Notes under the pieces: model-generated
Databases searched by the model: none
Told to the model about the DNA's origin: nothing
What the model saw: only the letters and a program-made list of their open reading frames with translations
Part shown: piece by piece, positions 3,101-50,400 of the stretch
How the letters are laid out: each line of letters starts with the position of its first letter
Numbering within the stretch: position 1 is the stretch's first letter
Origin: a virus
Taxonomy: Duplodnaviria; Caudoviricetes
Strand: one strand, 5' to 3'
IMG/VR virus record: IMGVR_UViG_3300042320_001544
Location: 1-57,705 of that record
Length of the DNA: 57,705 bases
Made by a program: the position numbers and the translations under genes

Positions 3101-6100
3101 TTGAACACATTCGCATCGGCGCTGAGCACCACACCGTTGTCGGTAATCGCATACCACTTGGGCACGTTGGGGTCTTGTCTGCGGGTGTATTCCCGCAGGG
3201 CGGCGATCCGCTGCCCGGTGTTCTTCATTTCTCGACCTACCGCGCTGGACGGATTCCGGTGTCCCGGCACCTGCACTCCGAGGCGTTGCAGGGCTTCGAC
3301 CGCGCGGGCCGTGTGCCAATCGATCACCGCTTTGAGCGCCGGATCGGTCGCGGTCAGGTTGCGCAGGCGATTAATCAACCGCTTGAACATATCGACCAGC
3401 TTTTGCTTTAGACCGGGGTCCGCCTGAGCGGCTTCGGTGATCTTCTGGCCAAAAAGGCGATCTTCAAACAGCATGCGCTGCGCTTCAAAGCCCATGGTCA
3501 CGGCTATTTCGTCGGACCACTCCGCCGGCTCTTCTTCCATGCGCCCATCGTCGATGGCGGCGGCGAAGTAGCTCTGGTAGGCATCCGACTGAAGATCCGC
3601 CGGCAGGCTTCCCCAGAAATCGCGCATTTCGTCTACGCTGAACTCACGCAACTGCATGGCATGAATCACCTCGTGACTGACGATCTGAGCGATGACATCA
3701 CCCTCCATGCGCAGGTTCTGAGCCACCCAACTGGACAGGTCCACTTTCAACACCACGCGGGTGTAACGGCCATCGGCGCCTGGGTCCATGCCCTCGGTCA
3801 GGATGCCAGAGCCGGGCAGGCCCTCGACGAGTTCAATGTCATCAAACGCCCCTTTGCGAGCCGACAGACTGCGCCGGAGCACCGCCAGTGCGGTTTGAGC
3901 CCGAGCCGTGGCGTTGGGGCGACCCGCAAACTGGGCCAGCGCCGCTTCGACGGCGGTGTCCCAAAGTTTCCGGGTTAGGGGCGGTGTGACCCGCCCCCCG
4001 CTGGCCGGCGGGACGGTTTCGGGGGCAGGCTGCCCGCTTTGGCTTGGGCTTCCAGCGTTGTTGCGTGGGGTCGGTTCGGGGGTGTCGGGTTGCTCATTGG
4101 GTGTTATCTCAGGTTCTGGATTGTTTGCAGGAGTCGGTTTTGCGCGCTGGGTGCCAGTCGTTTGAGTAGTTGGGCGGCTTCCCCCTGCTCGAGACTGCTG
4201 ATCTCGGCCTCCGCTAGCGGGCACGGGTGCATTGGGCGCGGGGTCCGTTGCAGGGCCCGCCTCAGCGTCTCCGCCTGTTGCGGTTTCAGCAGTGCGGCCA
4301 GCTCCAGGTTCGGCAGTTGGTTGAGATCCGTCAGAATCACGGCGGTTGAGCGGGGTAGTGTTTTCAAGTTCACGAGCTTTTTGGAATCCGGCTTTGAGCG
4401 TTCCTTTTTTGGCGGCGACCACGATGACGGCATCGGCGATCCCGGAGAGAATGAGCACGGGATTAGCGGACAAAACGCCGCCCACCATTTTGAACAGGAT
4501 GCCCACGGCAGCCCATCCGGTGGCGATCTCTTGGCCGTTCTTGGCTCGCTTGTAGAGCCGATAGGTTCCCACGAGGGCAAGACCACTGCTGAGCGCTTCA
4601 CCAATGTTTAGCGACATCCATTCGGTGGCGGCTTTGTCACTGACCACGCCGGCATGGACCAGCCATTGCACACCGGGCAGGGGAATGCCGCTCTTGGTCA
4701 GGCTGTCTTTGAGGAGTTGTCCGGCATACTCAGGCAAAACCCCCACCCCGAACTTGTCAATGACTGCGCCGACACTGGCCAGCGGATCGTGGCCGAACCA
4801 CACCCGGTGAAACCACGGCGCGGACATGTTGGCCTCGATGACCTCCGCCATGCCGGAGTTTTGCACCTTGTCGATCCACTGACCCACTTCAGAGCCGGGA
4901 AAGGCTTTGTCGATGATTTGGGTGCCAAACGAATGAAATTTCCCGTAGCGATCCGTAAACCCGAACGGCAGACCGGTATCGACGATCTTGTATCCAAAAG
5001 CCGTAGCCAGCTCCCTCAGCATTCGCGCAAAGGGTTGAATTTGCTCGCGCGCACGGGCCGCCTGCTCAGGCACCTCGGCTTCCGTTTCGGGCGGTGCCGT
5101 TGGCTCCATGGGCTCGGGCGCGGGTTGCGCCGGCGTCGGGGCTTTAGAGGTCGGTGTGGCCGGCTGTTGGTTCACGGCCGGCTGCCCAATGTCTCCCACC
5201 GTGGCCGTGGCTCCACCCTTCAGCATGGCGCGCACCTGCGGTTTCTTCATCGCCATTTCGGCGGCCTGCTCAGGCGTGGAGGCTTGAACGGGAATGTTCA
5301 TGGTCCGAACACCTCCCGTTTTCGAGGTGATCGTGATCGGCACCATGAACCACTGCGGCGCGGGCGTTTCGGCGGGTTTCTCGCGTTTACGAATAATTGA
5401 CGCGGGTTTGATTTGGACTTTGTTGCCGTTTACATCTTTGACCTCTTGGTGAACAAGTATTGCCGCAATATCAATAGGCTCTCCATAGCCCTCGACAAAA
5501 GCCTTTCCATTCGGAAGAACACCTTCAATTGTGAACTCTTCCCCTCCATCCTCAATAACCTTGTCCCCCCTTTTTAGCGTTGCTGCAATTCTGACTGCGG
5601 CGGCGCGCCGGTTGGCAATTGCTTGATCCCGTTCTTGGCCTGGGGTCGTTCTATCATAAATAGACCTGACCGGTTCCGCGACAATATTCTCGTCAGAAAG
5701 TGTTTCAGCTTGCTGGGGGTCAGACATTGTTTGTCCTACGCCCTTGGCAGGTGACGGCGTCGGCTCCACGGGCTCGACGGGCTCGACGGGCTGTTGCGTT
5801 TCCGCAGGTGCCACCTGCTGGGGGTCGGACATCGTTTGTCCTACCCCCACGGCGGGCTCAGGCGTCAGATTTTCATTAACGGAATCATTGACCTCACGGT
5901 TATTGCGCGCTTCAAGAGGTCGCAATTCTTGCAGTTCACTCGGGGTTGCCACCCCTTTCGCCCGCTTGTCCAAAAGTTCCGTGTATCGGGTCCGCTCTTG
6001 GTCATTTAAAAGGTCTGCATCGCCGCTTGGTGCACTGCTTGGTGCACTAGTTGGTGAGGGCACCGTCTGACTTTGCTCATCGGGCGGAAAGATCATCGCT

Positions 6101-11095: not shown

Positions 11096-11806
11096 TTAGC
11101 GTCTGTTGCCACGGCTTGCGGCCGCAAACGTGCTGGACCCCACTTGGCGGCCTCTTCGAAACGCCATGCGCCCCTTGGTGGTGGAAATGGTGCCGTCCTG
11201 CATCGGCGCGCGACCTGTCTGAAGGGTTTCCTGATTGGCCGCACCTCCCATCTGTTCCTGCTCTAGCTCGGCCTGCCTCCGCCGGCGGAACTCGGCGGCT
11301 CCGCGCTCGGTTTGGACAGTCAGAAGGCCCTTGGTTGGACCTGGATTTTTTCCGTTTTCCAATGCGAATTTTCTTTGTTCTAACGCTTCGAGTTCAGTTT
11401 CAGCCCGACTCAAATTTTCTTTTGCATCAGCCAGTCTTCGCGTCTTATCTTCAAACGCAGCATTGCCGGGCTTGTTAAAACGTTCCTTCCAGTCTGCCTC
11501 CCGCTTTTCGGCATCATCTGCCTCTTTCTCAGCCGCCTGCTCTCCGCCAAACCCTTTGATCTTCTTTCGCTCCGCCGGCGCGCCCCTGCCCCTTCCTCCC
11601 CCACCTCCACCGCCACCACCTCGGGTTGGCGGTGCGGGATTGTCCAAATCCATGCCCATGTTATAGTTCAACTGCGCCTGCTGCCGCATCATGTTGATCT
11701 TCGCTAGCCGCGCTGGCGGGATGCTTGGTCCCCGTTGCTTCGCCCACAACTCTCGATCTCTGGCTTTCTGAGCGCTGCTTTTCTGGGTGAAATCGAGGTT
11801 TTGCAT
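11096..11806 (-). CDS. Coiled-coil/Gly-rich hypothetical protein, possible internal virion protein
   Basis: ATG at 11806 (MQNLDF); poly-Gly tract and charged heptad region. Confidence 0.65.
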   Translation of the reverse strand: MQNLDFTQKSSAQKARDRELWAKQRGPSIPPARLAKINMMRQQAQLNYNMGMDLDNPAPPTRGGGGGGGGGRGRGAPAERKKIKGFGGEQAAEKEADDAEKREADWKERFNKPGNAAFEDKTRRLADAKENLSRAETELEALEQRKFALENGKNPGPTKGLLTVQTERGAAEFRRRRQAELEQEQMGGAANQETLQTGRAPMQDGTISTTKGRMAFRRGRQVGSSTFAAASRGNRR

Positions 11807-14472: not shown

Positions 14473-15105
14473 TCAATACGCCCATTTCGCGTCGCCTAAA
14501 ATTTCAGTGGAATCACCCCACCATTGATCCCACTGCTCGTTGGTCGCGACCTCCCAGTTCGGGATCGCGGCCACGGCGTCTTTGCCAGTCAATGACAACG
14601 GCATCCACTTGATGCGATTGTTCGGATACACTCCAATTTGCCCATTGGAAAGGCGCAGAACATTGCCTTCCTTATGCTCTTGGAGCAATTCTGAGTCGCC
14701 CACATCGACCAGCCCCTGCGCCTGCCCCTCGGGGCAAAAATCGATGGTGAACCAGTAGTGCCCGGTCATTGGCGGCTGCCCTCGCCCCATGTTGATTAAC
14801 ACCGGCACGTCGGACAATTGGTCCTTGCGCCACATTTCAATCGAGCCGCTCAGGCACTCCCACATCTGCACCCGATGCAACGGGAGGGGCGCGTGGTTGT
14901 CCTCGGGAACACTCCAATACACACAGTGCGGAGGGATTTTGTCAAAACACGCCGCGACCCGCTCGACCCATGCCTGGAAACACAGCGGTCGGTTGCGCAT
15001 GGCCCTCACCGACACTAACCACGCAGGTTCCCATTCGGTTTCTGATCCCCCAAAGGCGTCGCAACGGACAAATATTTTTGATTTTGGTAGATTGATGTTT
15101 CTCAT
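14473..15105 (-). CDS. Conserved-type phage hypothetical protein
   Basis: 210 aa; YWFTID...EHK..N.L.L.NGQ...YPNNR pattern that I recall from aquatic phage proteins of unknown function. Confidence 0.7.
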   Translation of the reverse strand: MRNINLPKSKIFVRCDAFGGSETEWEPAWLVSVRAMRNRPLCFQAWVERVAACFDKIPPHCVYWSVPEDNHAPLPLHRVQMWECLSGSIEMWRKDQLSDVPVLINMGRGQPPMTGHYWFTIDFCPEGQAQGLVDVGDSELLQEHKEGNVLRLSNGQIGVYPNNRIKWMPLSLTGKDAVAAIPNWEVATNEQWDQWWGDSTEILGDAKWAY

Positions 15106-15121
15106 AAAGATAAAGGACCGA

Positions 15122-15793
15122 TCACGCGCGGCCTAGGCGGATGCTGGCCCACATGGCCGCGATGTCGCCCAACGTCTGGGGCCCCAGCTCCACTTCCTGG
15201 CGTTCAAAGTTCAGCCATTTGCCCAGCAATTGCCAGCGATCCAGCAGCGCCGTCATTTTGTATTTCGGGCCAAACATGGTCTGCGATGTCTCGGAGCAGA
15301 GCAACAGAGCCCGCCGTTCGGTGGCCGTCAGGTTGGCCTCAGTGCCTTCGGTCTGCGCCTTCTCCACCGCACGCGCCACGGCCGTGATCGGGATGTCCAT
15401 GGTGTCCAGTAACGCCAGCACAGCGTCTGTTTTCTTGATCACGCTCCGCTCCTGCACTTTGGCAGTAACCGTGCCGCGTAGAAATTCGACGCGGACCTTA
15501 ACCGTTTTTAACAGCCGACTCGTGGCAGCCGCCACCGATTGCACATTCTTTCCCGCGCCAAAAATCTCAGCGTACGCTTTGACCGGACCCTGATCTTCAA
15601 GCGCCACGGCTCGAGCAAACGACTCGTGCTTGCCATTCACCAACGCCACCGATCCCGGCGGTGGTGCCGTCTTGGTCTGGTTGGCTGGCCGCACAGGCTT
15701 CCCCTTCACGGCCTTCACGGGTTTCACCGGCTTCCCCTTGGGTTTAGCCTTGGCCGTCTTTTGTTTGGTTTTGATGGATCCCTTTTTCATCAT
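15122..15793 (-). CDS. terS: Probable terminase small subunit
   Basis: KHESFARAVA...KAYAEIFG...AAATSRLLK..KVRVEFLR HTH-plus-helix pattern typical of TerS; upstream of terL; Lys-rich N-terminus; start uncertain (15793 or 15808). Confidence 0.65.
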   Translation of the reverse strand: MMKKGSIKTKQKTAKAKPKGKPVKPVKAVKGKPVRPANQTKTAPPPGSVALVNGKHESFARAVALEDQGPVKAYAEIFGAGKNVQSVAAATSRLLKTVKVRVEFLRGTVTAKVQERSVIKKTDAVLALLDTMDIPITAVARAVEKAQTEGTEANLTATERRALLLCSETSQTMFGPKYKMTALLDRWQLLGKWLNFERQEVELGPQTLGDIAAMWASIRLGRA

Positions 15794-15823
15794 GCGACTC
15801 CGCCCCATGTTGGTTGGAGTCAA

Positions 15824-16180
15824 TTATTCGCCAGCGCGGGGGCTTTTGCAAGCCTGCCCTTCTTTGGCGGCCCGTTCCTCAATCATGTCCCGGTGCCGAT
15901 CCACATAATCGATCACCGGTGCCCATTCTTTGCTCTTTCGCGACCACGCTTGCTCCATCACCCACAGCAGATAGGTCGCCGGCACCCGCTCCATGGTTTT
16001 CAGCCGGTGCAATTTCCCAACCGGAAAAAAACTCTGATGATGGAGCACCCCCCGAGTCACCCGGCTGTAATGCGCTCGGCCTGCATCGCGCGCTTCCTGC
16101 AACGGATCCGCTGGCGCAGTGTTCCAAAAATGGTGCTTTCGCCGGTCTTCGTGATCAAAAATCTCAACACCGTGATTCAT
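15824..16180 (-). CDS. DUF3820/ExoX C-terminal-like small domain protein
   Basis: FPVGK....TMERVPATYLLWV resembles the PFGK..G..I..VP..YL.W motif. Confidence 0.55.
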   Translation of the reverse strand: MNHGVEIFDHEDRRKHHFWNTAPADPLQEARDAGRAHYSRVTRGVLHHQSFFPVGKLHRLKTMERVPATYLLWVMEQAWSRKSKEWAPVIDYVDRHRDMIEERAAKEGQACKSPRAGE

Positions 16181-16240
16181 GGTCCCATTTTACCCCAATG
16201 TAGGTTTACGCGCACCGGCGCGTGATATTTAGTCGATTTG

Positions 16241-16516
16241 TTAATGATCCGTACTGTTCGCCTCAAAGAGACGCGGCGGGTTTGGCGATAGTTCCACCAG
16301 TCGGATTAGCTCGTTCTGGAGGCGGTATCGTTCCGCGAGTTGGCGGGCTGCAATGATGCGGTAGATGTCGCGCTGATCCATTTCGGAATGCTCCCCGAAG
16401 TGTTGCCAGTTAGCCCACATGGGATCGTTGCGCAGCGCCCATTGCTCGACAGCGGCAATGTCCGCAGTGAGATTTTCATTGTTTTGACTGATTTGAGGTG
16501 GTGTCGGTAGTTGCAT
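16241..16516 (-). CDS. Hypothetical protein (cassette 1 gene)
   Basis: 91 aa between attC-like sites; ends EANSTDH across the R' core. Confidence 0.7.
   Translation of the reverse strand: MQLPTPPQISQNNENLTADIAAVEQWALRNDPMWANWQHFGEHSEMDQRDIYRIIAARQLAERYRLQNELIRLVELSPNPPRLFEANSTDH
16244..16262 (+). mobile_element. attC-like right half-site (L'-spacer-R')
   Basis: atgatcc-gtact-gttcgcc, similar to the right arm of the attC at 16922-16940; no left arm found. Confidence 0.55.
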
Positions 16517-16520
16517 AAAA

Positions 16521-16623
16521 GGCGAACAAGGTTGGTGCTGGCAACCCCTGCCAGCGGGTTAGTCGATACTGTTATCGTTGCTCCTGCGGCGCTGGCTGGG
16601 TTGCCAGACCACCGACGTTCGCC
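16521..16623 (+). mobile_element. attC-like recombination site 1
   Basis: R'' ggcgaac, 5 nt, L'' tggtGctg ... L' cagacca, 5 nt, R' gttcgcc; long imperfect inverted repeat with an extrahelical G. Confidence 0.8.
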
Positions 16624-16898
16624 CAGTCGTTCCAGTCTTTGATTGCACTCATCATTGCGGCGTCGCTTTGACTGTCCGTCCAACCGTAGGGATGATTGTC
16701 GGCAGCCCCACCGTGCCCAAACGGGCAGATTTTTCGATAGGCGTCGCCAATGAGTTGTGAATCCTGAATTGGTCTCGCCCCGCAAAACGGACACGCCAGA
16801 AGGGCAAACAAATCGGATGCAGGCCGACCATCTGGGGCTGGCTGTCTTATGCCGGATTCTGGCGCTCCGGCGGGCGCGGTTTCAAGTGCGGTGTCCAT
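16572..16898 (-). CDS. Lar-like (restriction alleviation family) zinc-ribbon protein (cassette 2 gene)
   Basis: LLACPFCG...ICPFGH...AIKDWN. Confidence 0.6.
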   Translation of the reverse strand: MDTALETAPAGAPESGIRQPAPDGRPASDLFALLACPFCGARPIQDSQLIGDAYRKICPFGHGGAADNHPYGWTDSQSDAAMMSAIKDWNDWANVGGLATQPAPQEQR

Positions 16899-16940
16899 AG
16901 TGGTTATGCCCCAGAGGTCGGCTGATCCTTTGCGTTAGGG
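16803..16940 (+). mobile_element. attC-like recombination site 2
   Basis: R'' ggcaaac, aaatc, L'' ggatGcag, gccgacc ... ggtcgg, L' ctgatcc, tttgc, R' gttaggg. Confidence 0.82.
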
Positions 16941-17458
16941 CACTTCTCCAGTATCACGAGTTTGTTCCATTTCGTGATGCCACAGACTCGCCATCCCGCC
17001 TTTTTGTAGCACGCGCCGGGGTTCGTGCTGCGGATGCCCGTTGGCTTGACGTAAGTGTAAAGGCGTTCTCCCGGCCACCGCTTCCACGCCAACTCCTCAG
17101 CGTCCAGGATGAGCAGGCTTGAGAGTGTGATTCCCTCGTTGCGGAAGATCGCGTTATTGATTCCTTGCTGGCCGGATGCGTCCTTGAACTTGCGCCAACA
17201 CCAGATCGCGTCTCCGGCCTCCGTGATAAGCACCATCTTTTCCCCCGGTCCCACGAACAGTTTTGGCTTTCTCCCGTCCTTGTAGTGATAACGCGAATAG
17301 TGCCGATCATAAATCTCCCTCGCTCCGTCGTCTCCATCACGGCACTCGTGCCAGTGGCGTCCCAACTGCCTGCGACCAACGCCGTGCCCTAACAATGCGC
17401 TGATGCCAAGCGCCGGAAACGCTTGGTCAGATTGCAGGGCTGGAGACGGCGCTGGCAT
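16904..17458 (-). CDS. Mom-like GNAT-fold DNA modification protein (cassette 3 gene)
   Basis: DRHYSR...FRNE..LSS.LI..A...AW..WP.ERLYTYV....I.S.NPGACYKKAGW...G.TK; GxxYxxAGW is characteristic of Mom-related GNATs. Confidence 0.6.
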   Translation of the reverse strand: MPAPSPALQSDQAFPALGISALLGHGVGRRQLGRHWHECRDGDDGAREIYDRHYSRYHYKDGRKPKLFVGPGEKMVLITEAGDAIWCWRKFKDASGQQGINNAIFRNEGITLSSLLILDAEELAWKRWPGERLYTYVKPTGIRSTNPGACYKKAGWRVCGITKWNKLVILEKCPNAKDQPTSGA

Positions 17459-17475
17459 AGCTTCAATCGTTGGTG
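17387..17475 (+). mobile_element. attC-like recombination site 3
   Basis: R'' ccctaac, aatgc, L'' gctGatgc, caAgcgccg ... cggcgctg, L' gcatagc, ttcaatc, R' gttggtg; two extrahelical bases. Confidence 0.82.
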
Positions 17476-17477
17476 TG

Positions 17478-18458
17478 TTAAGCCGCCTCCCCCTTCATCT
17501 TTTGCCAATCCCTCAGTCGTTCCTCCGCCGTGCGGGTATCGGTGGAGTCAGGTGGAGGTGCAGCAGGGGTGGCCGTGCGTTTGGGTTTTGGCGGATCGGT
17601 GCGCCAAATTTGGCGTGCGCGCTCGGTGTACGCGCTGAGTTGGTCCAGAAAGACACTGCGCTTGGCGCTGATTCGGGTTTCCTCCGGGAACCGAGCTTGA
17701 TTCGCTGGCCGGCTGCACCATTCAAAAAAATGGCCCCACTGGTGCCATTGAGCATTGTCACAGCCATCAAGGGTGCCGTGGGCTTGCAACAGCGCGTGCC
17801 GATCATCACAGCTCCAATGTTGCACCTTCCCCCAGCTTGCCGGCCTCAGTGCATCGATGCGTTTCATCAGCGCCTCCAGTTGTTGCGTGCGCGGCGGCTC
17901 GTTGTCGGGCTCAGCGATGCCGGGCACCTGATCGGTGTATTCGGTCTTGGGAGCAGTGGCAGGCGGCACCGGCGGCGCGGTTACAGGGCGTTGTTGGCGT
18001 TGGGCTCGCGTGCGCTGGGCCGCCTTGCTGCGAGGGTTTCCGGGTCTTCCGCGCCGCGCGCGCCCTTTGCTGAGCCGATTGTAGCGCAGGTAATCAGGGA
18101 AGAGCAGCGTGCGCTCTTTGGCATCGCGCACCACCCAACCCACTTCCTCCATCGCGGCTTGGATGCCTGGCATGTCGGCTACCATGTCGAGGTAATTGTC
18201 CCCACCGATCCCGGAAAGGATGGCGTCGAGGCTATCCTCGGCCACCTCGTCGGCGTGCTCGTTCACCACGGCAAACACGCGACTCAACGCGCTGCACGTC
18301 ACATGCCGCATCAAGTTCTGAAAACTGACCGCCCCTGAAAAACCGGGCAGGGTTTCAAAACCGCGGCTCAGCAGTTCCGCCATGCGGTGCACCTTCGGCT
18401 TTGTCCAAAAGCGCTCGGTGAAAATGATCCAATTCCCAATGCCCGTCTTTTTGCTCAT
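17478..18458 (-). CDS. Putative replication initiator/replisome organiser
   Basis: N-terminal WI....FW.KPKV..MA.LL and L.FPDY..YN pattern, basic/Pro-rich linker and C-terminal domain, as in phage replication initiators. Confidence 0.55.
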   Translation of the reverse strand: MSKKTGIGNWIIFTERFWTKPKVHRMAELLSRGFETLPGFSGAVSFQNLMRHVTCSALSRVFAVVNEHADEVAEDSLDAILSGIGGDNYLDMVADMPGIQAAMEEVGWVVRDAKERTLLFPDYLRYNRLSKGRARRGRPGNPRSKAAQRTRAQRQQRPVTAPPVPPATAPKTEYTDQVPGIAEPDNEPPRTQQLEALMKRIDALRPASWGKVQHWSCDDRHALLQAHGTLDGCDNAQWHQWGHFFEWCSRPANQARFPEETRISAKRSVFLDQLSAYTERARQIWRTDPPKPKRTATPAAPPPDSTDTRTAEERLRDWQKMKGEAA

Positions 18459-18461
18459 TGC

Positions 18462-18785
18462 TTAATGGGTTTGCAGTTCTCGGGTTTCAAAGAGGTCGGC
18501 GAGATCGTCCTCGCGACCCATGATCAGGCGCGCATAGCGGCTTGTGTAATTGTTGTTGAGCCGGAAACCGTCCTCACTGTCGATGGTCACCCCAAAATTA
18601 TATCTCAGGACTTCCCACAGCATCTTGATGGAGCAGTGCGCTTTCCCGCTGTCCTTCCACCGGCGTGCCATCCGCACCAGCTCGTCGTACACATACGGGT
18701 GCTGATAATGATAGCGGAGGAACGCATCACTGGCCGAATTAGCGGTGGGCAGTTCAAGTTGTTCGTCGTTTGGCTGCGTTCTCAT
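18462..18785 (-). CDS. Conserved phage protein of unknown function
   Basis: F..YH..HP.VY..L...A...SIK.LWE.LR...FRLNNNYTSRYARL.M....L..LFETR. Confidence 0.75.
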   Translation of the reverse strand: MRTQPNDEQLELPTANSASDAFLRYHYQHPYVYDELVRMARRWKDSGKAHCSIKMLWEVLRYNFGVTIDSEDGFRLNNNYTSRYARLIMGREDDLADLFETRELQTH

Positions 18786-19207
18786 AATTTGGTGCAGGCA
18801 GAGTCCAAGGTGCCAGCGAGGTAGGCGTCAATTGTTCGTCTCGCGTGATCAAAACCGTGGCAGACCGAAACGGCGTAGCCAGCCGCCGCGAGTCGATCCT
18901 GCCAGCCCGTTTGCTCAGGGCTCACTCGCCCGCCCTTGGCGCGCTTCATCTCGACGAACAGCCCCGGCCTACCGCCGGCGCACCATGCCAAAAACAAATC
19001 AGGAACGCCGGCGCTCGTGCCCTCGGCCTTCAGCCGTCTGGCCGTTAACAGGTGACGGGCTCCACCATTCGGAATGGCAAACAAATTGCCCCAAGCCGGC
19101 ACCGTGCGCGCCCTCGATCTCGCCCAGATCATGAGCGCCACCTGCTCGGTGTGCTCAGTCGGCCCTTGGCCGGGCTTGATGGGTTTGCGGAAGGGTGTTT
19201 TTTTCAT
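18782..19207 (-). CDS. VRR-NUC domain nuclease
   Basis: EH.EQ...FAIPNGG.R...LKAEG..AGVPDLFL...LFVEMKR.KGGRVSPEQ..W. Confidence 0.9.
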   Translation of the reverse strand: MKKTPFRKPIKPGQGPTEHTEQVALMIWARSRARTVPAWGNLFAIPNGGARHLLTARRLKAEGTSAGVPDLFLAWCAGGRPGLFVEMKRAKGGRVSPEQTGWQDRLAAAGYAVSVCHGFDHARRTIDAYLAGTLDSACTKL

Positions 19208-19515
19208 CAGGCTTGGCGTTTGATGTTCTCCATTTCAATGGCAGCCACGAGGCAGCGCCGATCTCCATAAACCGACCTCCACGCCACAGGGTCCGGCGGT
19301 TCCTTTTGAATTGTGAGACTGGCCACCCTTGCCATGAGGCGATTCTTTTTCCCGTAGCCCAGCGATAACACCACCGCCCGGCCGGGAATCACGGTGTTTT
19401 GATTCCATCTCGGGCCAAAAGGGCGATATTCAGTAGTTTTAGAGCCATCTTCAAAGGCAAGGAAATGCTCCTTTTTCAGCGGCACGAACAAAGCGGTGCG
19501 CGGTGTTTTTTTCAT
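19207..19515 (-). CDS. ASCH domain protein
   Basis: LKKEHF.A..DGSKTTEYR...RW; start 19515 overlaps the upstream stop (ATGA). Confidence 0.8.
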   Translation of the reverse strand: MKKTPRTALFVPLKKEHFLAFEDGSKTTEYRPFGPRWNQNTVIPGRAVVLSLGYGKKNRLMARVASLTIQKEPPDPVAWRSVYGDRRCLVAAIEMENIKRQA

Positions 19516-22303: not shown

Positions 22304-22483
22304 TTATTCAGTCGGGTAAACCGGCCAATCCTTCACCGTGAGCCAGATCATCCAGAAGGTGAAGAAGAACACGACCACCGCCGCTATCAGGCAGTGGAGC
22401 ACATGCCTCCATCCCCGGATCTGCTCCTGCCGTTCCAAGAGGTGATAAAATTCCATCAGTTGCTGTTCCAGTGTCTTTTTCAT
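22304..22483 (-). CDS. Small membrane protein
   Basis: MKKTLEQQ...CLIAAVVVFFFTFWMIWL single TM helix; overlapped by the methyltransferase tail. Confidence 0.55.
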   Translation of the reverse strand: MKKTLEQQLMEFYHLLERQEQIRGWRHVLHCLIAAVVVFFFTFWMIWLTVKDWPVYPTE

Positions 22484-23759
22484 AAGTTGGGGGGTTGGGG
22501 GTGGTGGGGTGGTCGCGGTTGAGGTCGGCGATGCGTTGGCCGATCCAGCGCATGACGGGGACGGCCATGCTGTTGCCGAGTGCTTTGTAGCGGGGGCCAT
22601 CGGGGGCGGTCTTCCCGCGCCAAGGGACAAGGGTGTGATCGTCAGGAAACCCTTGGAGCCGCTCGCACTCCCGAGGGGTGAGGCGCCGGACTTGCATTTG
22701 CTGGCGGATGTAGCTCGTTTGCTTCATGCCCGGTTCAGCGGCGAGCGCACCGACAACTTGCATCTCCCTCAGTTCGTCACGGGTGTTTTGGGCGAAGGCT
22801 ACGGCGGGAGGATTCCCGCTTGATCCCCCGCTGCCAATTTTGATTGGCACCGACGATCCATCTGTCTGGATGTTGTCGCAGTAGCTTTCGTTTGAGTAGA
22901 ACGAGATCGGCACAAGTGGCGTGCCGCGGCCCGTGCCATCCTCGCTTGCGTCAAAGCCTTCGCCCCGCAGTGTGTGCGCGACGAGATCCGTCGCGTCTTT
23001 GTAGTCACGCATTTTGAGCGTGGAGGCGGAGTCGTCGCACTCGTATTCACCGAAGGCGACCATCCTTGCGGTGATGACTTCGGGGATCACGCAGTCTTGT
23101 CCTCGGGTGTCTCCGGTGCGCTCAAACCCTCGGCGACTTGCTGTAAGGCAAGGTGCAAGGTCGTAGGCAGATCCTTGCCTCTTTTCTCGGCTCGGCGCAG
23201 GATCCCCGCGCAGGCTCTCGCGCTCAAATAAAACTGCGGCGGCACGACGCCAGTCTCCAAGGTGTCCGACAACGAACACACGGCGGCGGCGCTGGGCCAC
23301 TCCGAAGTATTGAGCGTCAAGAACGCGGTAGGCGGTCCCATACCCGAGTTCCCCCAGCCCTCCAAGGAAGGCTCCAAAAGCCCCTGTTTGGTCTGACAGA
23401 ACGCCGGGGACGTTCTCCCAGACCAGCCACTCGGGGAGATAGCGTGCAAGGAGAGCCAGAAACGTGAGGGTGAGGTTCCCTCGAGGGTCAGCAAGCCCTT
23501 TGCGAAGTCCGGCAACGGAGAAGGCTTGGCAGGGGGTGCCGCCGACGATGAGGTGAGGTCGAAGAGTGTCTGGCCATTCATGGTATTGTGTCATGTCGCC
23601 TAGGTTAGGAACCTCCGGCCAGTGATGGGCGAGCACGGCGGAAGGGAATTTTTCAATCTCGGCAAAACCACACGGCACCCACCCGAGCGGCTCCCACGCG
23701 ACGGAAGCGGCCTCAATGCCGGAGCAGATGGAGAGGTAGGTGAAGGGGGTGAGGTTCAT
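22308..23759 (-). CDS. dcm: DNA (cytosine-5)-methyltransferase
   Basis: Motif I CSGIEA, IV GTPCQAFS, VI WENVPG, VIII AQRRRR, IX RRLTPRECERLQGFPD, X LGNSMAVPV. Confidence 0.95.
   Translation of the reverse strand: MNLTPFTYLSICSGIEAASVAWEPLGWVPCGFAEIEKFPSAVLAHHWPEVPNLGDMTQYHEWPDTLRPHLIVGGTPCQAFSVAGLRKGLADPRGNLTLTFLALLARYLPEWLVWENVPGVLSDQTGAFGAFLGGLGELGYGTAYRVLDAQYFGVAQRRRRVFVVGHLGDWRRAAAVLFERESLRGDPAPSREKRQGSAYDLAPCLTASRRGFERTGDTRGQDCVIPEVITARMVAFGEYECDDSASTLKMRDYKDATDLVAHTLRGEGFDASEDGTGRGTPLVPISFYSNESYCDNIQTDGSSVPIKIGSGGSSGNPPAVAFAQNTRDELREMQVVGALAAEPGMKQTSYIRQQMQVRRLTPRECERLQGFPDDHTLVPWRGKTAPDGPRYKALGNSMAVPVMRWIGQRIADLNRDHPTTPNPPTYEKDTGTATDGILSPLGTAGADPGMEACAPLPDSGGGRVLLHLLDDLAHGEGLAGLPD
23087..23581 (-). 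CDS. Nested alternative-frame ORF resembling the M.EcoHK31I beta polypeptide
   Basis: WGNSGM...TLNTSEWPS.A.VCSLSD.LET...FYLS..AC.GILRRAEKRGK.LP..L..AL, wholly inside dcm. Confidence 0.6.
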   Translation of the reverse strand: MNGQTLFDLTSSSAAPPAKPSPLPDFAKGLLTLEGTSPSRFWLSLHAISPSGWSGRTSPAFCQTKQGLLEPSLEGWGNSGMGPPTAFLTLNTSEWPSAAAVCSLSDTLETGVVPPQFYLSARACAGILRRAEKRGKDLPTTLHLALQQVAEGLSAPETPEDKTA

Positions 23760-39996: not shown

Positions 39997-40275
39997 TTAG
40001 GCGCGATTTGGAACTTTGTGGTAGCAGCGGATGTGACCGCTGGCGAGTTGGCCCGCGTGGAAGTAACCGTAAAGGATGTCACCGGCGGGATAGGTTGCGC
40101 CGGCGGTGACCACTCCAGTGGAAGGGTTGGCTCCCTTGATCAACCCGTTCCCTTGCAGGTTCGAAAACACCGCGGCCGTCACAATCTGGATGGCCGCGAT
40201 GTTTTTGCCTGCAAAGGCGTTTGTATCTGCCACCTCGAAAAACCCGAGGCTGCCGTCAGTGAGTGAGACTTTCAT
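39997..40275 (-). CDS. Small beta-rich minor virion protein
   Basis: T.PAG..LYG.F....L.SG...CY pattern. Confidence 0.6.
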   Translation of the reverse strand: MKVSLTDGSLGFFEVADTNAFAGKNIAAIQIVTAAVFSNLQGNGLIKGANPSTGVVTAGATYPAGDILYGYFHAGQLASGHIRCYHKVPNRA

Positions 40276-44486: not shown

Positions 44487-47400
44487 TCACGGTGCTTTTG
44501 GCAGCCGTTTAATCAACCGGGAAAATTCCGACATGGCCCCCTTGCCTTTACCTTCCATGGCTTCACCCATGGCCCCTTGCGGAACCGGCATGAAGTTGAG
44601 CCCAGTCAGATCACCCAGCAGCGATAGCGAGCCCGGCTTGCGTGCCACATCCTGCGGCTTGGGATAAAAGAGCCTTGGGAATTGTTTTGAGGTGCCGGAG
44701 GTGGCAAAGTTTCTTGTTTGCGTTCCTTGCCGGATGCTCTCGGTGCCCACTCCCATTTTTTGCAAGTCGGTCACGTCCTGCGGCCAGTTGGTCACGGTCG
44801 TCTTCTGAAGATCAAGGAACCCCCGTGGAATGCCCAGTTGTTCGAGCAGCGCCACTTGTTCGGGAACCGTCGCCGCTTGGATGAGCGCCGCGCGCCGGTT
44901 GATCTCAGCGATCATGGCGGCTTGCTCAGTCGCCGGCAATTCTTTGTCGGCCTTCACCTGCTGCTTCCGCGCCTTTGCCCATTCATCAACCTTAAACGGC
45001 GCATTGCCCACCGCCTGGTATTCGCCCTCAGCCGGCAGGTATTGGGACAAGCCCGGAATGTTGGACATGATTGCCTCCCTGATACCGGGGTCATACTTCA
45101 GTCCTGGAATGGGTCGCAAGCGCCGGCGGATTGGGTCCATAGCCTTGGTCACGGTGTCCCGAGCCCGGCTTGGGATGAGCGGAGCGGTGAGCAAATCAAA
45201 GAGCGCATCCGATGCCACCACCGGAAACGACTTGTCTCGGTTGTAGGGGCTGATCTTGTAAGTGACCGGCGTGAGATTCATCAATATTCCGGTCTGCATG
45301 TAGTCCTGTCCCATGTCGGCACTGTGCTCCCACATCTCCCTCCAGTCGCCATTGGCAGCCATGCCCAGCAGCACGGCCTCGCGCAGGTAGGGGTATTTGG
45401 TGAACTTCATGTAAAGGTCACCCACTCGACCAAGGTCATCGGTCAGGGTGCCATCGGTGCCGATGTCGATGCCGTATCGGCGCAGGTAATCGCGCACGAG
45501 ACGCACCACGCGGCTTGCGTTGATGCGGTCGCCAGTCCGAACGGCTCCAGCCAGATCGCGGCCTTCGTCGTCGTAATTCCGGCCAATCATCGGATCGTCA
45601 TCATCTCCACCTTCATCGCCGCTCATGGCGGCCCCGATCACGGTGAGGGCTCCCATGGTCATCAGGTTGGCCATCGAGCGCCGGCGCTGTTCGCCAGACG
45701 CGCCACGGCTCGTCGCCGTGATGAGCGCGCCGCCAGTGACGTTGTAAAGCTGACGCAGGTAGTTGTAACCCCACTTGATGAACGGGAACAGCGCCTTCTT
45801 GGTGATGCGGCCCAGTTGCGTTTGGCTTTGGTTCGGATCGATCCACGCCGGGACGTTGGCGTAGTCCATAAACCAGAACATGGCGCGGTCGTACGCGTCC
45901 TGAAAGGCTTTGGGCTGATCAGTGTGAGCGGTCTTGAGGTAGGTCAGCACCCAGTCGCGCCGGGCGCGGCCTTTGAGTTTTTGCTTGTCGGCCTCCAGAT
46001 CGGCGCGCGCGCGCAGGATGCGATAGATCATCGCCATTTTCGGGTTGGTGTCTACGTTCCCGTAGCCGATGGCTTTCAGGAAGGCGCTACCAGGGTCGAG
46101 GTTGCCAAGGTCAAACAATGCGCTGGCCTTCGGATCGATATCAAAAAGCGTCAGGCCGCCGCTATCGCTGACGATCTCCTCTGGCACCACTTCGGAAATG
46201 CGAGTCTTGGTCCGCGCAATGCGGTCGCGGGCCATGCCTCTGACCAAATGGCTAAACTCATAGGCTCCCAACTTGGCGGCCTGCCCTTGCCCCGTAACGG
46301 CGCTCAGAATGGCGTAGTTCAGGCTGTTCAGCGTCGCGATGTTGCGGAGAATTTCATTGCTGGCCCAGTTGGTCACATAGGTGCCAAAACTAACGAGCAC
46401 ACCCCGGTTGAACCGGTCCACAAACCACTCAATGGCACGCAAAAGGCTGTTCTCCGTGCGCTCGTGAGCCATGCCGGCCATCAGTTCCTTGTGCACGTTC
46501 CGATGAATTCCGTACTCCTTGTTCCAGAATCGCGCGGCATCACCCACCAGACCGCGGAGCAGTTCGGCCTGATCGGGGGTCAATGGCTCGCCTTTGGTCG
46601 GCTTGAGTTCCTCGACCAACCGGAGCCGGCGGATGTGAGCGAGCAGGATGGTCGTCAGGATTTCATCCACGTTGATCATGTCTGCCCGTTGAACTTGCGG
46701 TAAGCGGTCGAGCCTCACCGAGGCGCGATTGATCAACAGGCGGCGCGTTTCGAGGCGATTCTTTTCCCGGATCGACTCCATGGCGGTCACGCTGAACCCA
46801 TCAATCAGGTTGCGCACCTCACCGCGTTGAATCTTGGTGCCACTCCGCGTCGTGCGGGCGTCGCTCATGAAGGTGCGGAGCAGTTGCCCCATGAACTGCG
46901 CAAGGTTGCGTTGCACGGCGACATCCGGCGTCCAGCCCCCGAGGGTGGTGATCATGGGCAGCGGCGCGTCGCCAAACACATTGCGCAGCGTGTCCGGCCA
47001 TGTGTTGAAAGTCGCCAGCAGACTGCCCCGGTTAAACGTAGGCACCACGGTGCCACCAGGACCGACCTCGGTGACGTTTTCCATGCCGGGCATCAAGTAT
47101 TGATCGAGCACACCGACCGCCGTCGGGAACCGCTGGGCAAAGCCTTGGTAAATACCAGCCTGCACGTCGGCCGGCATCCACTCATACAACACAAAGCCAC
47201 CTCGATCACGAGCCAGCGCGCCCACGCTCAACACGGTGGGCACGCCCTCAATGTCTTGGGTGGTCATATCGCCGGCTGCTAGGTTTAGCGTTTGAGCTTC
47301 AAGCACGGTCAGGAAGCCAACTGGCCGTTCAAAGTCGGTGAAGATAAACGACCCATCGTCGGCGACGCCGGCCACCTCCAGTCGGCTGGCGACCGGGAGC

Positions 47401-50400
47401 ACCTGATCCAGAAACGCTTCCATGTCCTTTTTGCGGCTGCTCCAGTAACCCGGATCGCCGAACGCGGCTCGCACCTCGCGCCGCACCTTGTCCATCATCC
47501 CGTTGATCGCCGCCACGGCAAACCCTTCGTCAAACTGGTTCTTCTGAATCACCCGTTTGATGCCCGGCACAAAATAGTCGAGCTTGTCGAACCGGCCGTA
47601 AAAGTACTTAGCCAGCACGTCTGAGAAACCGCCATGCGTTGGCCGTTTTTTATTGTCTGTCTCTGCACCCTTGGCCATTTGCACCCGCCGGGCCTTGCCC
47701 TCAGCCGTGATGCCGTCCAGATGCTGAGCCGCCGGCTTGCTGGGCCGCACAGGCTGAGGGGCAAACAAAGCGAGCCCCTGTTGCTGGATGCTCTGACGCA
47801 TCGCCGGCGTGATGTCCACGCGCCAGATCCCAGTCTTGGCCGCAGAGTCTTTCCATGCTTGAAGAATAGCCGCGTCAGGTGCGTCAACGTCCCAAGTCGT
47901 TGCAAAATTTCTATCGGCCAAAACCTCCGTCAACGCTTGATTCACATTGTCAAATCCCAGCATGTCATTGCGACGAATGGCGTCTCTGGCAGCTTGTGTG
48001 GTTTTAGCCTTGCCTTCTGTCGGGATGACGGACTGCTCAACTCTTCCCCCCCACTGCTTCACAAACTTGCCAATTTCTTTGGGGAGGATGGTGTCATAGA
48101 AACCAACCATTCCTTTGCCGCCGACTTTAAGACCGTCGCCGGTGATGCTGCCGCTGCTTCCTCCGTCGATGATCTGCTGGGCGACATCTTTGCCAACGTA
48201 TTCTTCCAATTTCTCCTTGGGGATCGGGTCTGTCGAAGGGAACACATTCAAGTAATTGTCGTCTTTGACTCCCGCCAGAATGTAGGTTTTGCCCTCGTCA
48301 TCGGTGCGATACTGCAATTCATCGAGCTGCTGGCTCAGATCAAATCTCGCCACCTGCGTCTCGCCGGTGGTCCAACCGATCCACAGCTTGCCTTTCGCCA
48401 CGGCGTCTGCCAGAGCGCGCTTGAACATTTGCAGGGGCCAAGTGGCGCGGAAGGGAGCGTCAGGGACTGTCCCGATTTGCCGCACACCCCGCACAGCCCG
48501 CAGCGACTTTTCATTAGCGGCAATGGCTTCCTCCTTTGTCCGCCGGATGCCTTCAAAGCGTCCCTCATCATTTTGGAAAGCCCACTGCCCTGCATACTGT
48601 CCCGCCGTTTCCGGCATTTGGACGATTCTCGTCGAAATGATGGTTTCCGCTGATGGAGCGTCTTCGCTATACCCCTTCTTCCGCCCTTGCTGATGGCGGT
48701 CGCTTTGGATCTCTTCGATGAATGTCCCCGGCCGGCCTTGCGAATCAGTGCGCTCGTTCACCCGCATGTGCGCCACATAATTGGGCACGTTCGGAAAATG
48801 GCGGGACGTGAAGGCATTAGCAGCGTCCTTCGATTGGCCACCAATGATTGTGCCTCCGTTTTGCCGGATCAACTCGGCAACTTGCGAAGTGATGGGCTGA
48901 TCAAACTCAATGGCATACTCATTGTCTTCGCTCCTCCCGTAATCCATTTCGCTGAAGCCTTCGGCGTCCATGTCTGTCAGGAATGAATCGGCCGCTTCGT
49001 CATCAGCAAAGGTAACAGTGGTGCCCGAACCCTCGGTTTTAACGGGCATCGCCAGCACGACCTCGCGGTAGTTATGGCCCCCAGGCAGTTGGTATTGGGA
49101 GTATTTGCCGACATTCGGAGCAGCAACCCGTTTGTTGTCGATGTCCTTTTGCGCAGTCTCACGAGACGAATAGCGCCCCACCACATTGCCTGACCCATCC
49201 ACGATGACAGTGCCCATTCCATCCCCCTCGACACGCAGCGACTTGTAAAAGTCCGTTACCCCCATACTCACAACCTCTTCCAACCTCACTGCGCCATCGC
49301 TAGCGAGGTAGTCGAGCACAGCTTGCTTCTCGATCTTGTCCCCTTGGCTTTCAATCCAAGGCATGATTGCACTCCACTTGACCTCTTCGGCCTTGATGCC
49401 CGTCTGCGGGTTGGTGATGATGCCCTTGAGGGTCTTCGCATCGGCCCGCGCCGGCATCTTGGTCTTCACGACCTCCGCCAATTGCGAGTAAAACGCCGGC
49501 GTCACGGGCTGCACCCTTTCAGGCGCACCCAGTCGAACCCCCTCGCCTTTCCTCCCACCCTTCAGCCACTTGTCGAGGGCGTTGATCAACTCACTGGTGA
49601 AGTTGACGTACTCCTGAGTGCCCCAGCCCAATTGCTTGCCCAAGGGTCCAATCTGGCGGTCGGGGCGCTCGGCATCGTTCACATACTCATTGGCGTCCAC
49701 ATGATTTTGCAACCCCGCAAACGAGCGCACCCCCGCCGGGATCGTGCCGTTCGCCATGTCGGCCACAATCTCCGCCTTCGCCGTGGCCAGTCGATGCGCG
49801 AACACGCTTTCACGGGTGAGGGGTTTGATGGGCTCCGGTGCCCCGAGGGCTAGGTTGGGGACTATTCCTGTTTTGTCGATACCCACACCTACTTTTTCCA
49901 ATTCTCTGCGCAGCGAAGGTGTAACCACGTTGTCGGGTATTGTGACCCCTTCAGGGAGCGAGTCGCGGATTAATTGAGCCACCTCGGCGTCCGGGACGAT
50001 TCGTTTAATCTTGGCATAGCGAGACAAATCGACAATGCGGCCCTTGCCCCATGGGTGCGCGCCCACCGCACGTTTAGACAGGGGAGCTTGGTAGTCATCT
50101 TTTTTCGGAATTTCGATTTCGACGGTGACGTAGGGTTTCCGGTACGCAGCCGCAAACTGAGCGTTCAGCGGATTCTGCGAAGAATGAAAATACGGTGCGT
50201 AAATCGCATACACGTCATCGCCGTTTGGCCCCTTGAGTTTGAATTTGCCAGCGTTCCGGCCGGATTGAATAACCAAATCTGGGCGTTCTTCGGACTGCAT
50301 CCATTCACCCATTGGCTCGGCTGAACGAAGGTTGCCTTCCAAAAAAGTAGACATTGGAGGGTAGAGCTGGCCATCTATCAATGCCATGGTGCGATACCTC

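Follow-up and report, generated by a model that had tools for sequence, protein, structure and literature searches.

A probable three-cassette array of integron-type attC sites, without an integrase gene, in a complete lake-phage genome

Can a phage that encodes no integron integrase carry exchangeable gene cassettes of the integron type? The question is raised by a lake-water phage, IMG/VR record IMGVR_UViG_3300042320_001544, a complete virus genome of 57,705 bp with direct terminal repeats. The whole record was analysed and is called the window below. Three hairpins, lying between a replication-initiator-like gene and the packaging genes, had been read from the sequence alone (the original prediction) as attC sites of a cassette array without an integrase, that is, a CALIN (cluster of attC sites lacking integron-integrase). 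We conclude that 16256–17475 is, with good probability, a three-cassette integron-type CALIN in a phage genome that encodes no integrase. Its parts are listed below. The arrow in G↓TT marks the predicted crossover, ORF stands for open reading frame, aa for amino acids, and R3 for the covariance model described in the next paragraph.

16256–16262, plus strand: left junction core GTTCGCC; predicted crossover G↓TT between 16256 and 16257; no attC arm to its left
16257–16617, plus strand: cassette A, 361 nt; 91-aa ORF on the minus strand (16516 to 16241)
16521–16623, plus strand: putative attC site 1, of cassette A; R'' GGCGAAC at 16521–16527, R' GTTCGCC at 16617–16623; R3 score 23.7 bits
16618–16934, plus strand: cassette B, 317 nt; minus-strand ORF with its stop at 16572
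16803–16940, plus strand: putative attC site 2, of cassette B; R'' GGCAAAC at 16803–16809, R' GTTAGGG at 16934–16940; R3 score 12.5 bits
16935–17469, plus strand: cassette C, 535 nt; 184-aa ORF on the minus strand (17458 to 16904), matching phrog_24928 with E 2.5e-25
17387–17475, plus strand: putative attC site 3, of cassette C; R'' CCCTAAC at 17387–17393, R' GTTGGTG at 17469–17475; R3 score 21.4 bits
17469/17470, plus strand: right-hand crossover, in the R' core of site 3

Each cassette thus delimited runs from the TT of one G↓TT core through the G of its own attC site, and the three sites fall inside 955 nt.

Rfam contained no matching family (only three chance-level matches in 15500–18500), and neither a scan for AAC...GTT inverted pairs nor an arm-pairing score of our own separated genuine attC sites from background. 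Covariance models were built in three rounds. Briefly, the first model (R1) was made from 25 seed attC sites with the canonical structure, taken from MH445380 (class-1 arrays), MZ568829 (Shewanella), and MK672802 (Vibrio anguillarum), phage records with genuine integrons as named in the available text of Qi et al. (2023; PMC9892861). R1 found 5/5 held-out class-1 attC sites at 13.6–28.8 bits. It was narrow: beside the intI genes of 80 bacterial loci, collected with an IntI alignment, it found 65 sites, nearly all in Gammaproteobacteria. The second model (R2), rebuilt on these 65 sites, found 143 sites in many phyla, and R3 was rebuilt on 143 attC matches adjoining intI in the 80 bacterial genomes. 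R3 was then run on the whole window, on both strands and with filters off. Eight matches were obtained at E ≤ 10. The top three were 16521–16623 (E 0.0015), 17387–17475 (E 0.0056), and 16803–16940 (E 0.85), all on the plus strand and full length; these E-values are rough because of two self-enrichment rounds and a shortened calibration. Matches 4 to 8 scored at most 10.5 bits, and the two of them whose alignments were inspected were partial. As controls, the genuine arrays of records L002–L004 gave 41 matches, all within the known arrays and with every known attC matched, at 14.7–57.2 bits, the lowest being a partial match cut by the end of L004. There were no matches in 50 kb of P1 without an integron (L001) and only five, at 15.7–38.9 bits, in 80 other phage loci (590 kb). 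attC sites beside intI in three Verrucomicrobiota genomes scored 40.4, 20.7, 19.0, 16.4, and 11.3 bits, a range that includes the window scores.

The three sites have the attC architecture, with AAC and GTT flanking an imperfect hairpin with spacer, L box, and variable loop. AAC and GTT are present in 3/3 sites, and each aligns over its full length to the 16-pair model, with 1 (site 1, 1/16), 4, and 6 marks of non-standard pairs. All three read AACAA from R'' into the spacer; AA follows AAC in 78/143 training sites. Extra bases, read by eye and bracketed here, lie on the plus-strand 5' arm in 3/3 sites (TGGT[G]CTG; GGAT[G]CAG[G]CCGACC[A]; GCTGA[TG]CC), as expected of the extrahelical bases that mark the recombined strand. 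An extra base stands at the same place in two genuine attC sites of L002, cmlA1 and estX. On the top strand the window has G at this place, equivalent to C on the bottom strand, which differs from the aadA type. Site 1 folds as DNA at −35.4 kcal/mol (z −7.0; 0/200 shuffles equal), and in a 110-nt sliding scan of the whole window it was the strongest outlier and the most stable fold of the genome. The site-3 region was also among the outliers. The minimum-energy fold of site 3 pairs 17385–17391 with 17436–17440 and not with the GTT at 17469; R3 nevertheless uses 17469–17475 as R', and a 99%-identical contig of another sample breaks at 17471.

The second test concerned the cassette ends. In integron arrays, as a result of crossover at G↓TT, the R'' of an attC pairs with the start of the cassette to which it belongs and not with the R' of the same site. 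In the window, GTTCGCC (16256–16262) pairs with GGCGAAC (16521–16527), GTTCGCC (16617–16623) pairs with GGCAAAC (16803–16809) with one mismatch, and GTTAGGGCAC (16934–16943) pairs with GTGCCCTAAC (17384–17393) at 10/10 positions. Counted over the variable positions, cassettes A (row read by eye), B, and C pair at 4/4, 3/4, and 4/4, i.e. 11/12, across 260–450 nt. In the genuine arrays L002–L004, 33/35 cassettes pair at 4/4 in this way, and pairing with the R' of the same physical site reaches only about 2/4.

The third test used other lake metagenomes. Among 24 listed lake-water runs, 15 contained at least half of the sampled words of 15600–18600; 9 of these 15 are possible sources of the record. 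Contigs of four runs were aligned to 14500–19500 at ≥ 85% likeness. Of the 54 loose ends, at which a contig stops matching the window, 24 were listed, and 12 of the 24 lay within 16200–17500. Six of the 12 (16255, 16256, 16620, 16934, 16938, and 17471) were at most 4 nt from the four predicted crossovers, for which a binomial probability of about 4e-7 was calculated by hand among the loose ends listed. In run X13, two contigs match the window from 16255 or 16256 rightwards, with two differing left contexts, one of which ends in ...CTGAGGC directly before GTTCGCC and looks like the 3' end of another attC. A 365-nt contig of the same run equals exactly 16256–16620 without a difference (G, cassette A, and TTC), and X13 also has a contig that diverges past 16620. 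In run X16, two contigs begin matching at 16934, and X17 has a loose end at 16938. A further X16 contig (record 11) is 99% identical over 17168–17471 and then unlike. In X16, cassette C appears between ...CACACT followed by GTT and a GTT followed by CTGCC.... A backbone contig of X16, 96% identical, spans 14500 to 16259, and a second one starts at 17478, with unlike sequence leftward. The other six ends listed are located within the 184-aa gene or the site-3 stem (17406 and 17409); at the latter, the relatives keep R'' and the start of L'', and the stem differs. The same cassettes or the same attC family occur in other contexts, with breaks at the cores. No X16 or X17 contig covered 16337–16670, and the summed depth over 16838–17505 was far above that of the backbone; neither was used as evidence of absence or of copy number. 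The contigs gave no joint that would indicate an excised circle, a structure that assembled contigs could not reveal.

A six-frame search of the whole record with hidden Markov models (HMMs) gave no match to PF00589, PF00239, or PF07508 at E ≤ 0.1 and none to IntI (TIGR02249) at E ≤ 0.001. Three close attC sites without an integron integrase correspond to a CALIN; with no intI match and a bare G↓TT at the left end, the locus is not a complete integron. The integron-type reading is supported by three independent tests: the R3 matches, the complementarity of R'' and cassette start, and the breakpoints at G↓TT. The original prediction had placed the hairpins at exactly the ends that R3, the attC model built here for the covariance-model check, returned as its top three matches. 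The complementarity it described, 10/10 pairing included, is present in the sequence, and the relatives it would have compared do diverge, in assembled contigs of other samples, at all four G↓TT crossovers. Its array without an integron integrase stood as well. Two of its details were lost: the right half-site at 16244–16262 reduces to a bare G↓TT core at 16256, with no L' arm seen and no R3 match, and the attP-associated integrase has no counterpart among matches to the four recombinase profiles.

Several points weigh against an integron-type origin, besides the roughness of the R3 E-values. The R1 scores at the three sites (6.2, 4.2, and 1.5 bits), the top local matches, on the plus strand and at the exact hairpin coordinates, are not significant. 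R2 found site 3 only (12.6 bits, E 1.4), and site 2 taken alone is not significant with R3. The textbook R' is GTTRRRY, from which GTTCGCC and GTTGGTG deviate, and site 2 has A before AAC, which 0/143 training sites have. No intI was found in the record. The evidence from other samples consists of assembled contigs, mostly one per breakpoint and at low depth, with 24 of the 54 loose ends listed. The closest homologues of the 184-aa protein, in loci L005 (79%) and L165 (88%), have no attC, and a break at 16934–16943 is therefore also expected from the end of a conserved gene; the conserved core of the protein ends at ...ILEK (16943), adjoining the R' core. The ORFs lie opposite the attC top strand, each running some codons past its cassette boundary into the neighbouring attC, and the ORFs of a verrucomicrobial array (L148) are oriented as usual. 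The coding strand of cassettes A and B is assigned by codon usage alone, because their proteins have no real homologues.

What else could have produced such a locus? The sites might be attC-derived or attC-like, with the modules exchanged without an integron integrase, either by homologous or microhomology recombination across the conserved hairpins, resembling the mosaicism found at boundary sequences, or by another recombinase that acts on single-strand hairpins. A hairpin of the site-2 type, nearly identical in several contexts with both sides differing, would make a suitable homology patch. The host has no known IntI, the orientation of the ORFs is wrong for integron cassettes, and transfer of the 184-aa gene between phages involves no attC for most of its homologues. 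Against this, the variants at 16255/16256, 16620, and 17471 share only G or GTT(C) with the window before they differ, which is the signature of site-specific exchange. The complementarity of R'' and cassette start is a by-product of IntI crossover that recombination across a patch does not predict, and the window has no recombinase of the families searched. We consider this explanation unlikely.

The hairpins could also be ordinary intergenic or gene-end structures of a leftward operon, acting in termination or in RNA stability or processing, with AAC and GTT present by chance. Their location at the gene boundaries of one operon would fit, as would the insignificant R1 and R2 scores and a minimum-energy fold of site 3 that bypasses the proposed R'; after the homologue in L165, a plain terminator-like stem with a T-run was seen by eye. 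An intrinsic terminator (GC-rich stem, short loop, T-run) is not found at any of the three. No T-run follows them, and a terminator scan of 15800–17700 gave five sites (shuffles 2.7 ± 1.6), with 0 at the hairpins and 0 on the minus strand. R3 scores of 23.7 and 21.4 bits stand against 0 matches in L001, 0 outside the arrays in L002–L004, and five in 590 kb, and ordinary hairpins account neither for 11/12 variable R-box positions that pair across 260–450 nt nor for breakpoints of other samples at the cores. This explanation is largely refuted and has very little probability left. Misassembly of bacterial integron DNA onto a phage contig, conceivable in a metagenome assembly since attC repeats break assembly graphs (X13 contigs end at cores, and L252, described below, ends inside a site-2-type attC), is hardly credible, given an independent X13 contig (record 5), from a run not flagged as a possible source, that bridges 16591–17623 without a difference through cassettes B and C, site 3, and the start of the replication-initiator-like gene, the 96%-identical X16 backbone contig, the 15/24 listed runs containing at least half of the sampled words, an even GC content across the region, and cassette ORFs that share the codon usage and strand of the phage.

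If the array is an integron-type CALIN, insertion of the cassettes probably took place at a bare GTT of the phage genome, as in attC × attG recombination (GWT). A host-supplied integron integrase would have inserted them and may still exchange them, probably during infection. Such an enzyme would act on the folded bottom strand, either attC × attC or attC × a secondary GWT site. The use of a host IntI is an inference.

The cassettes differ from the common layout in the orientation of their genes. An ORF on the attC top strand, followed by the attC, is typical of cassettes, not strictly defining. In the window this layout is not seen: the attC top strand is the plus strand, and all three ORFs lie on the minus strand, i.e. 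the attC bottom strand. For cassette C, the minus-strand orientation is certain from homology; the profile of the 184-aa family gave nothing useful against solved structures (best E 0.31). The 91-aa ORF of cassette A has its last five codons and stop outside the cassette. Among the six frames, only its own has positive codon log-odds (+0.27 per codon; controls 0.10–0.27), and a search of 5.8 billion proteins returned no homologue besides the window's own protein. The ORF of cassette B starts at ATG 16898 (108 aa) or TTG 16811–16809 (79 aa), and its frame is likewise the only positive one of six (+0.07 per codon). It resembles PF14354 (Lar, restriction alleviation) with E 7.5e-4 and 20.1 bits, below the cut-off of 28.6, over residues 4–62 of the 79-aa form; the similarity is weak. 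AACAA reads TTGTT on the gene strand, placing a TTG at each cassette boundary. All three ORFs run in the direction of the phage operon and would therefore not require an integron promoter for expression. A canonical layout would result if the minus strand were the attC top strand; this was considered and rejected: R3 gave no minus-strand match of ≥ 8.4 bits at the sites, AACAA/GCGTT and the extra bases fit the plus strand, and the clean breaks at 16256, 16620, and 17471 fall at plus-strand R' cores. Proteins that share the residues encoded by site 2 were rejected as a sign of minus orientation, a nearly identical attC family explaining them equally well.

A wider proposal can be made from this orientation, and we regard it as doubtful when taken as a whole. 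Phage accessory genes, possibly anti-restriction genes, would circulate as reversed cassettes, and lake phages of PVC bacteria (Planctomycetes, Verrucomicrobia, and Chlamydiae) would share a cassette pool. A gene on the attC bottom strand would put the recombinogenic strand on the non-template strand, which transcription would expose as single-stranded DNA. Gain, loss, and reshuffling by a host IntI could then be driven by intense early transcription or by single-stranded intermediates of replication, and the conserved AACAA would supply a TTG start codon at each boundary. If this were true, the nearly identical attC sites of the site-2 family and a shared pool would be a phage-borne counterpart of the chromosomal super-integron.

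The site-2 family was examined by searching 1.84 billion representative proteins with the 108-aa ORF, in which residues 1–30 are encoded antisense to site 2. Five proteins were found. One is the same protein (96% identity), and the other four share only residues 1–29 to 1–38, encoded by site 2, and are then unrelated. The site-2 stem was found in one IMG/VR contig only, the 45,530-bp viral contig L252, where it stands behind a different gene; this contig ends inside an attC (3974–4060) nearly identical to site 2, which suggests that the shared attC family is a point where assemblies of such phages break. Nearly identical site-2-type attC sites thus lie beside at least five different cassette bodies, as judged from the protein matches and L252, as in chromosomal integrons with homogeneous attC sites. 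Proteins P0125 and P0123 were not found in viral contigs.

The family of the 184-aa protein (phrog_24928) has 2762 homologues in the searched database, and among the loci retrieved (80 viral, 80 metagenomic) the gene mostly has no attC nearby. In L065 (3996–4546), attC sites of 38.9 and 16.2 bits stand on either side of a phrog_24928 gene, and, like the window cassettes, this gene is antisense to their top strand. In L008 (3971–4492), an IMG/VR record of 27,782 bp with terminal repeats and 100% complete, the gene forms a canonical cassette: a bare G↓TTAGGC, the ORF, GCCTAAC (7/7 complementary), the hairpin, and G↓TTCGGA, with an attC of 26.3 bits on the gene's strand. The L008 record has neither IntI nor a tyrosine-recombinase match, and HMM searches found no IntI above the family cut-off in either the L065 or the L008 record. 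The genes therefore stand on the "wrong" strand of their attC sites in 2/3 phages examined (the window and L065, not L008), which raises the question of why. Three further observations concern this family. The attC sites of L065 closely resemble class-1 attC sites (e.g. CATAACAAGTCGCTCAAGCCGACG...), and the second has GAT, not GTT, at R'. In an 83-kb viral contig (L084), a 54-nt attC (3206–3259, minus strand, 31.8 bits) lies about 750 nt upstream of a phrog_24928 homologue and antisense to it. In P0083 (282 aa), a YunG domain (PF24585, E 1.1e-30) is joined to a homologue of the 184-aa protein, a possible clue to the function of the family.

Which host could provide the integrase? R boxes in which AAC is preceded by G, or GTT is followed by C, are uncommon: GAAC or GTTC occurs in 11/143 training sites. 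In the sample they were found in Planctomycetota (L153 and L147) and Verrucomicrobiota (L160 and L148, the latter outside the training set), and also in an Acidobacteria locus (L102), two Burkholderiales loci (L146 and L097), and a gammaproteobacterial Pseudohongiellaceae locus (L090). The closest look-alike of site 1 is the attC at 684–809 of L148, a Verrucomicrobiaceae metagenome-assembled genome (AGCGAACAAGTCGGTGGTGGACAAC...GACGTTCGTC). A site of L160 (Rariglobus, Opitutaceae; GGCGAACAATCGGATGCAG...) resembles site 1 in its R'' and site 2 in its L'', having GGCGAAC and AATCGGATGCAG in common with sites 1 and 2. The R-box type provides a lead to the host but does not assign it; the phage may infect a member of the PVC group, and the pointer is weak because the same type occurs in Acidobacteria and Burkholderiales loci. 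The large terminase subunit (TerL) matched 25 of 301 sampled Verrucomicrobiota genomes at only 29–34% identity (a further match was partial) and 0 of the three integron-bearing genomes; at such low identity and without a comparison group, these matches carry no information on the host. The lead to Verrucomicrobiota or Planctomycetota is of interest in that, to our knowledge, very few phages of these phyla are known. As a side observation, attC matches lie downstream of intI on the same strand in seven loci of Acidobacteriota, Thermoanaerobaculia, Eisenbacteria, and Coriobacteriia (L102, L124, L126, L142, L156, L096, and L091); in proteobacterial loci, by contrast, they lie upstream of intI on the opposite strand.

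Phage CALINs are a kind already known. The available text of Qi et al. (2023; PMC9892861) reports 17 CALINs in phage genomes, some of them virulent phages, and recombination of 5/6 phage attC sites by IntI1; the novelty implied by the original prediction is forestalled by it. Host IntI is assumed there to act in trans, and the cargo, methyltransferases, is thought to counter host restriction. The array described here is like those in having at least two attC sites that bound small cassettes in a phage without intI, and in a cargo that may act against host restriction (here a weakly Lar-like protein). It differs in its R boxes of the GCGAAC/GTTCGCC type, in ORFs that all lie on the attC bottom strand, and in a phage that has no DNA match (blastn) in a collection of 50,697 phage records. 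Population evidence of alternative contexts at the cores, available here, is not reported in that text as far as it is available. A CALIN is defined by Cury et al. (2016; PMC4889954; IntegronFinder), in the portion available, as at least two attC sites without intI. With the arrays treated there, the window shares the attC architecture and the G↓TT crossover logic, verified on L002–L004; unlike them, its replicon is a phage, its ORFs are antisense to the attC top strand, and these would be expressed, if at all, from the phage operon. The chromosomal integrons of Verrucomicrobiota and Planctomycetota (L148, L160, L118, L153, and L147) have R boxes of the same GCGAAC and GTTCG(C/T)C type, and, unlike the window, they adjoin intI and carry their ORFs on the top strand. 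Insertion of cassettes by attC × attG recombination, with the consensus 5'-GWT-3', is described by Loot et al. (bioRxiv 10.1101/2022.09.11.507474), in the available part, for Escherichia coli with IntI1, IntI2, and IntI3. The bare G↓TT at the left end of the array, where no attI or attC arm was seen, resembles such an insertion, as do cassette C between two GTTs in X16, as for a single cassette at GTT, and the single cassette after a bare GTTAGGC in L008. The present case adds breakpoints at the level of populations, genes in reversed orientation, and a PVC-like type of attC, in a complete uncultivated lake phage whose cassettes appear to be in active circulation. If phages swap small accessory genes through host integrases, part of phage mosaicism would be site-specific and host-driven.

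The ORF list places almost all genes past about 10 kb on the minus strand. Read along this strand, the order is the 326-aa replication-initiator-like gene, hairpin 3, the 184-aa gene, hairpin 2, the small Lar-like ORF, hairpin 1, the 91-aa ORF, the bare GTTCGCC, a 118-aa ORF, and the packaging genes. The two flanking features are as follows.

17478–18458, minus strand (18458 to 17478): right-flanking replication-initiator-like gene, 326 aa, phrog_2509 with E 3e-7
15824–16180, minus strand: left-flanking ORF of 118 aa from the ORF list, no function assigned; codon log-odds positive only in its own frame

The 118-aa ORF had no match in Pfam or PHROG. Close relatives of the phage were not found through the replication-initiator-like protein in viral and metagenome contigs, nor through TerL in viral contigs.

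Some minor observations were made elsewhere in the window. The best R1 match of the window was 11378–11480 on the minus strand (9.5 bits; TTTTAACAAG...AGCGTTAGAA), inside a 245-aa ORF; as an attC candidate it had no support from R2 or R3 and is probably due to chance. In the sliding fold scan, a local hairpin at 40151–40260 (z −4.4; CTTGCAGGTTCGAAAACACCGCGGCC...GGCCGCGATGTTTTTGCCTGCAAAG) ranked second in strength in the genome; it has no R3 match. A single ORF of 4400 aa (44487–57689, minus strand), a giant phage protein, occupies the final 13 kb. Outside the cassette array, a C-5 cytosine DNA methyltransferase is encoded at 22308–23759 on the minus strand (PF00145, E 8.5e-48), likely a further anti-restriction function of the phage.

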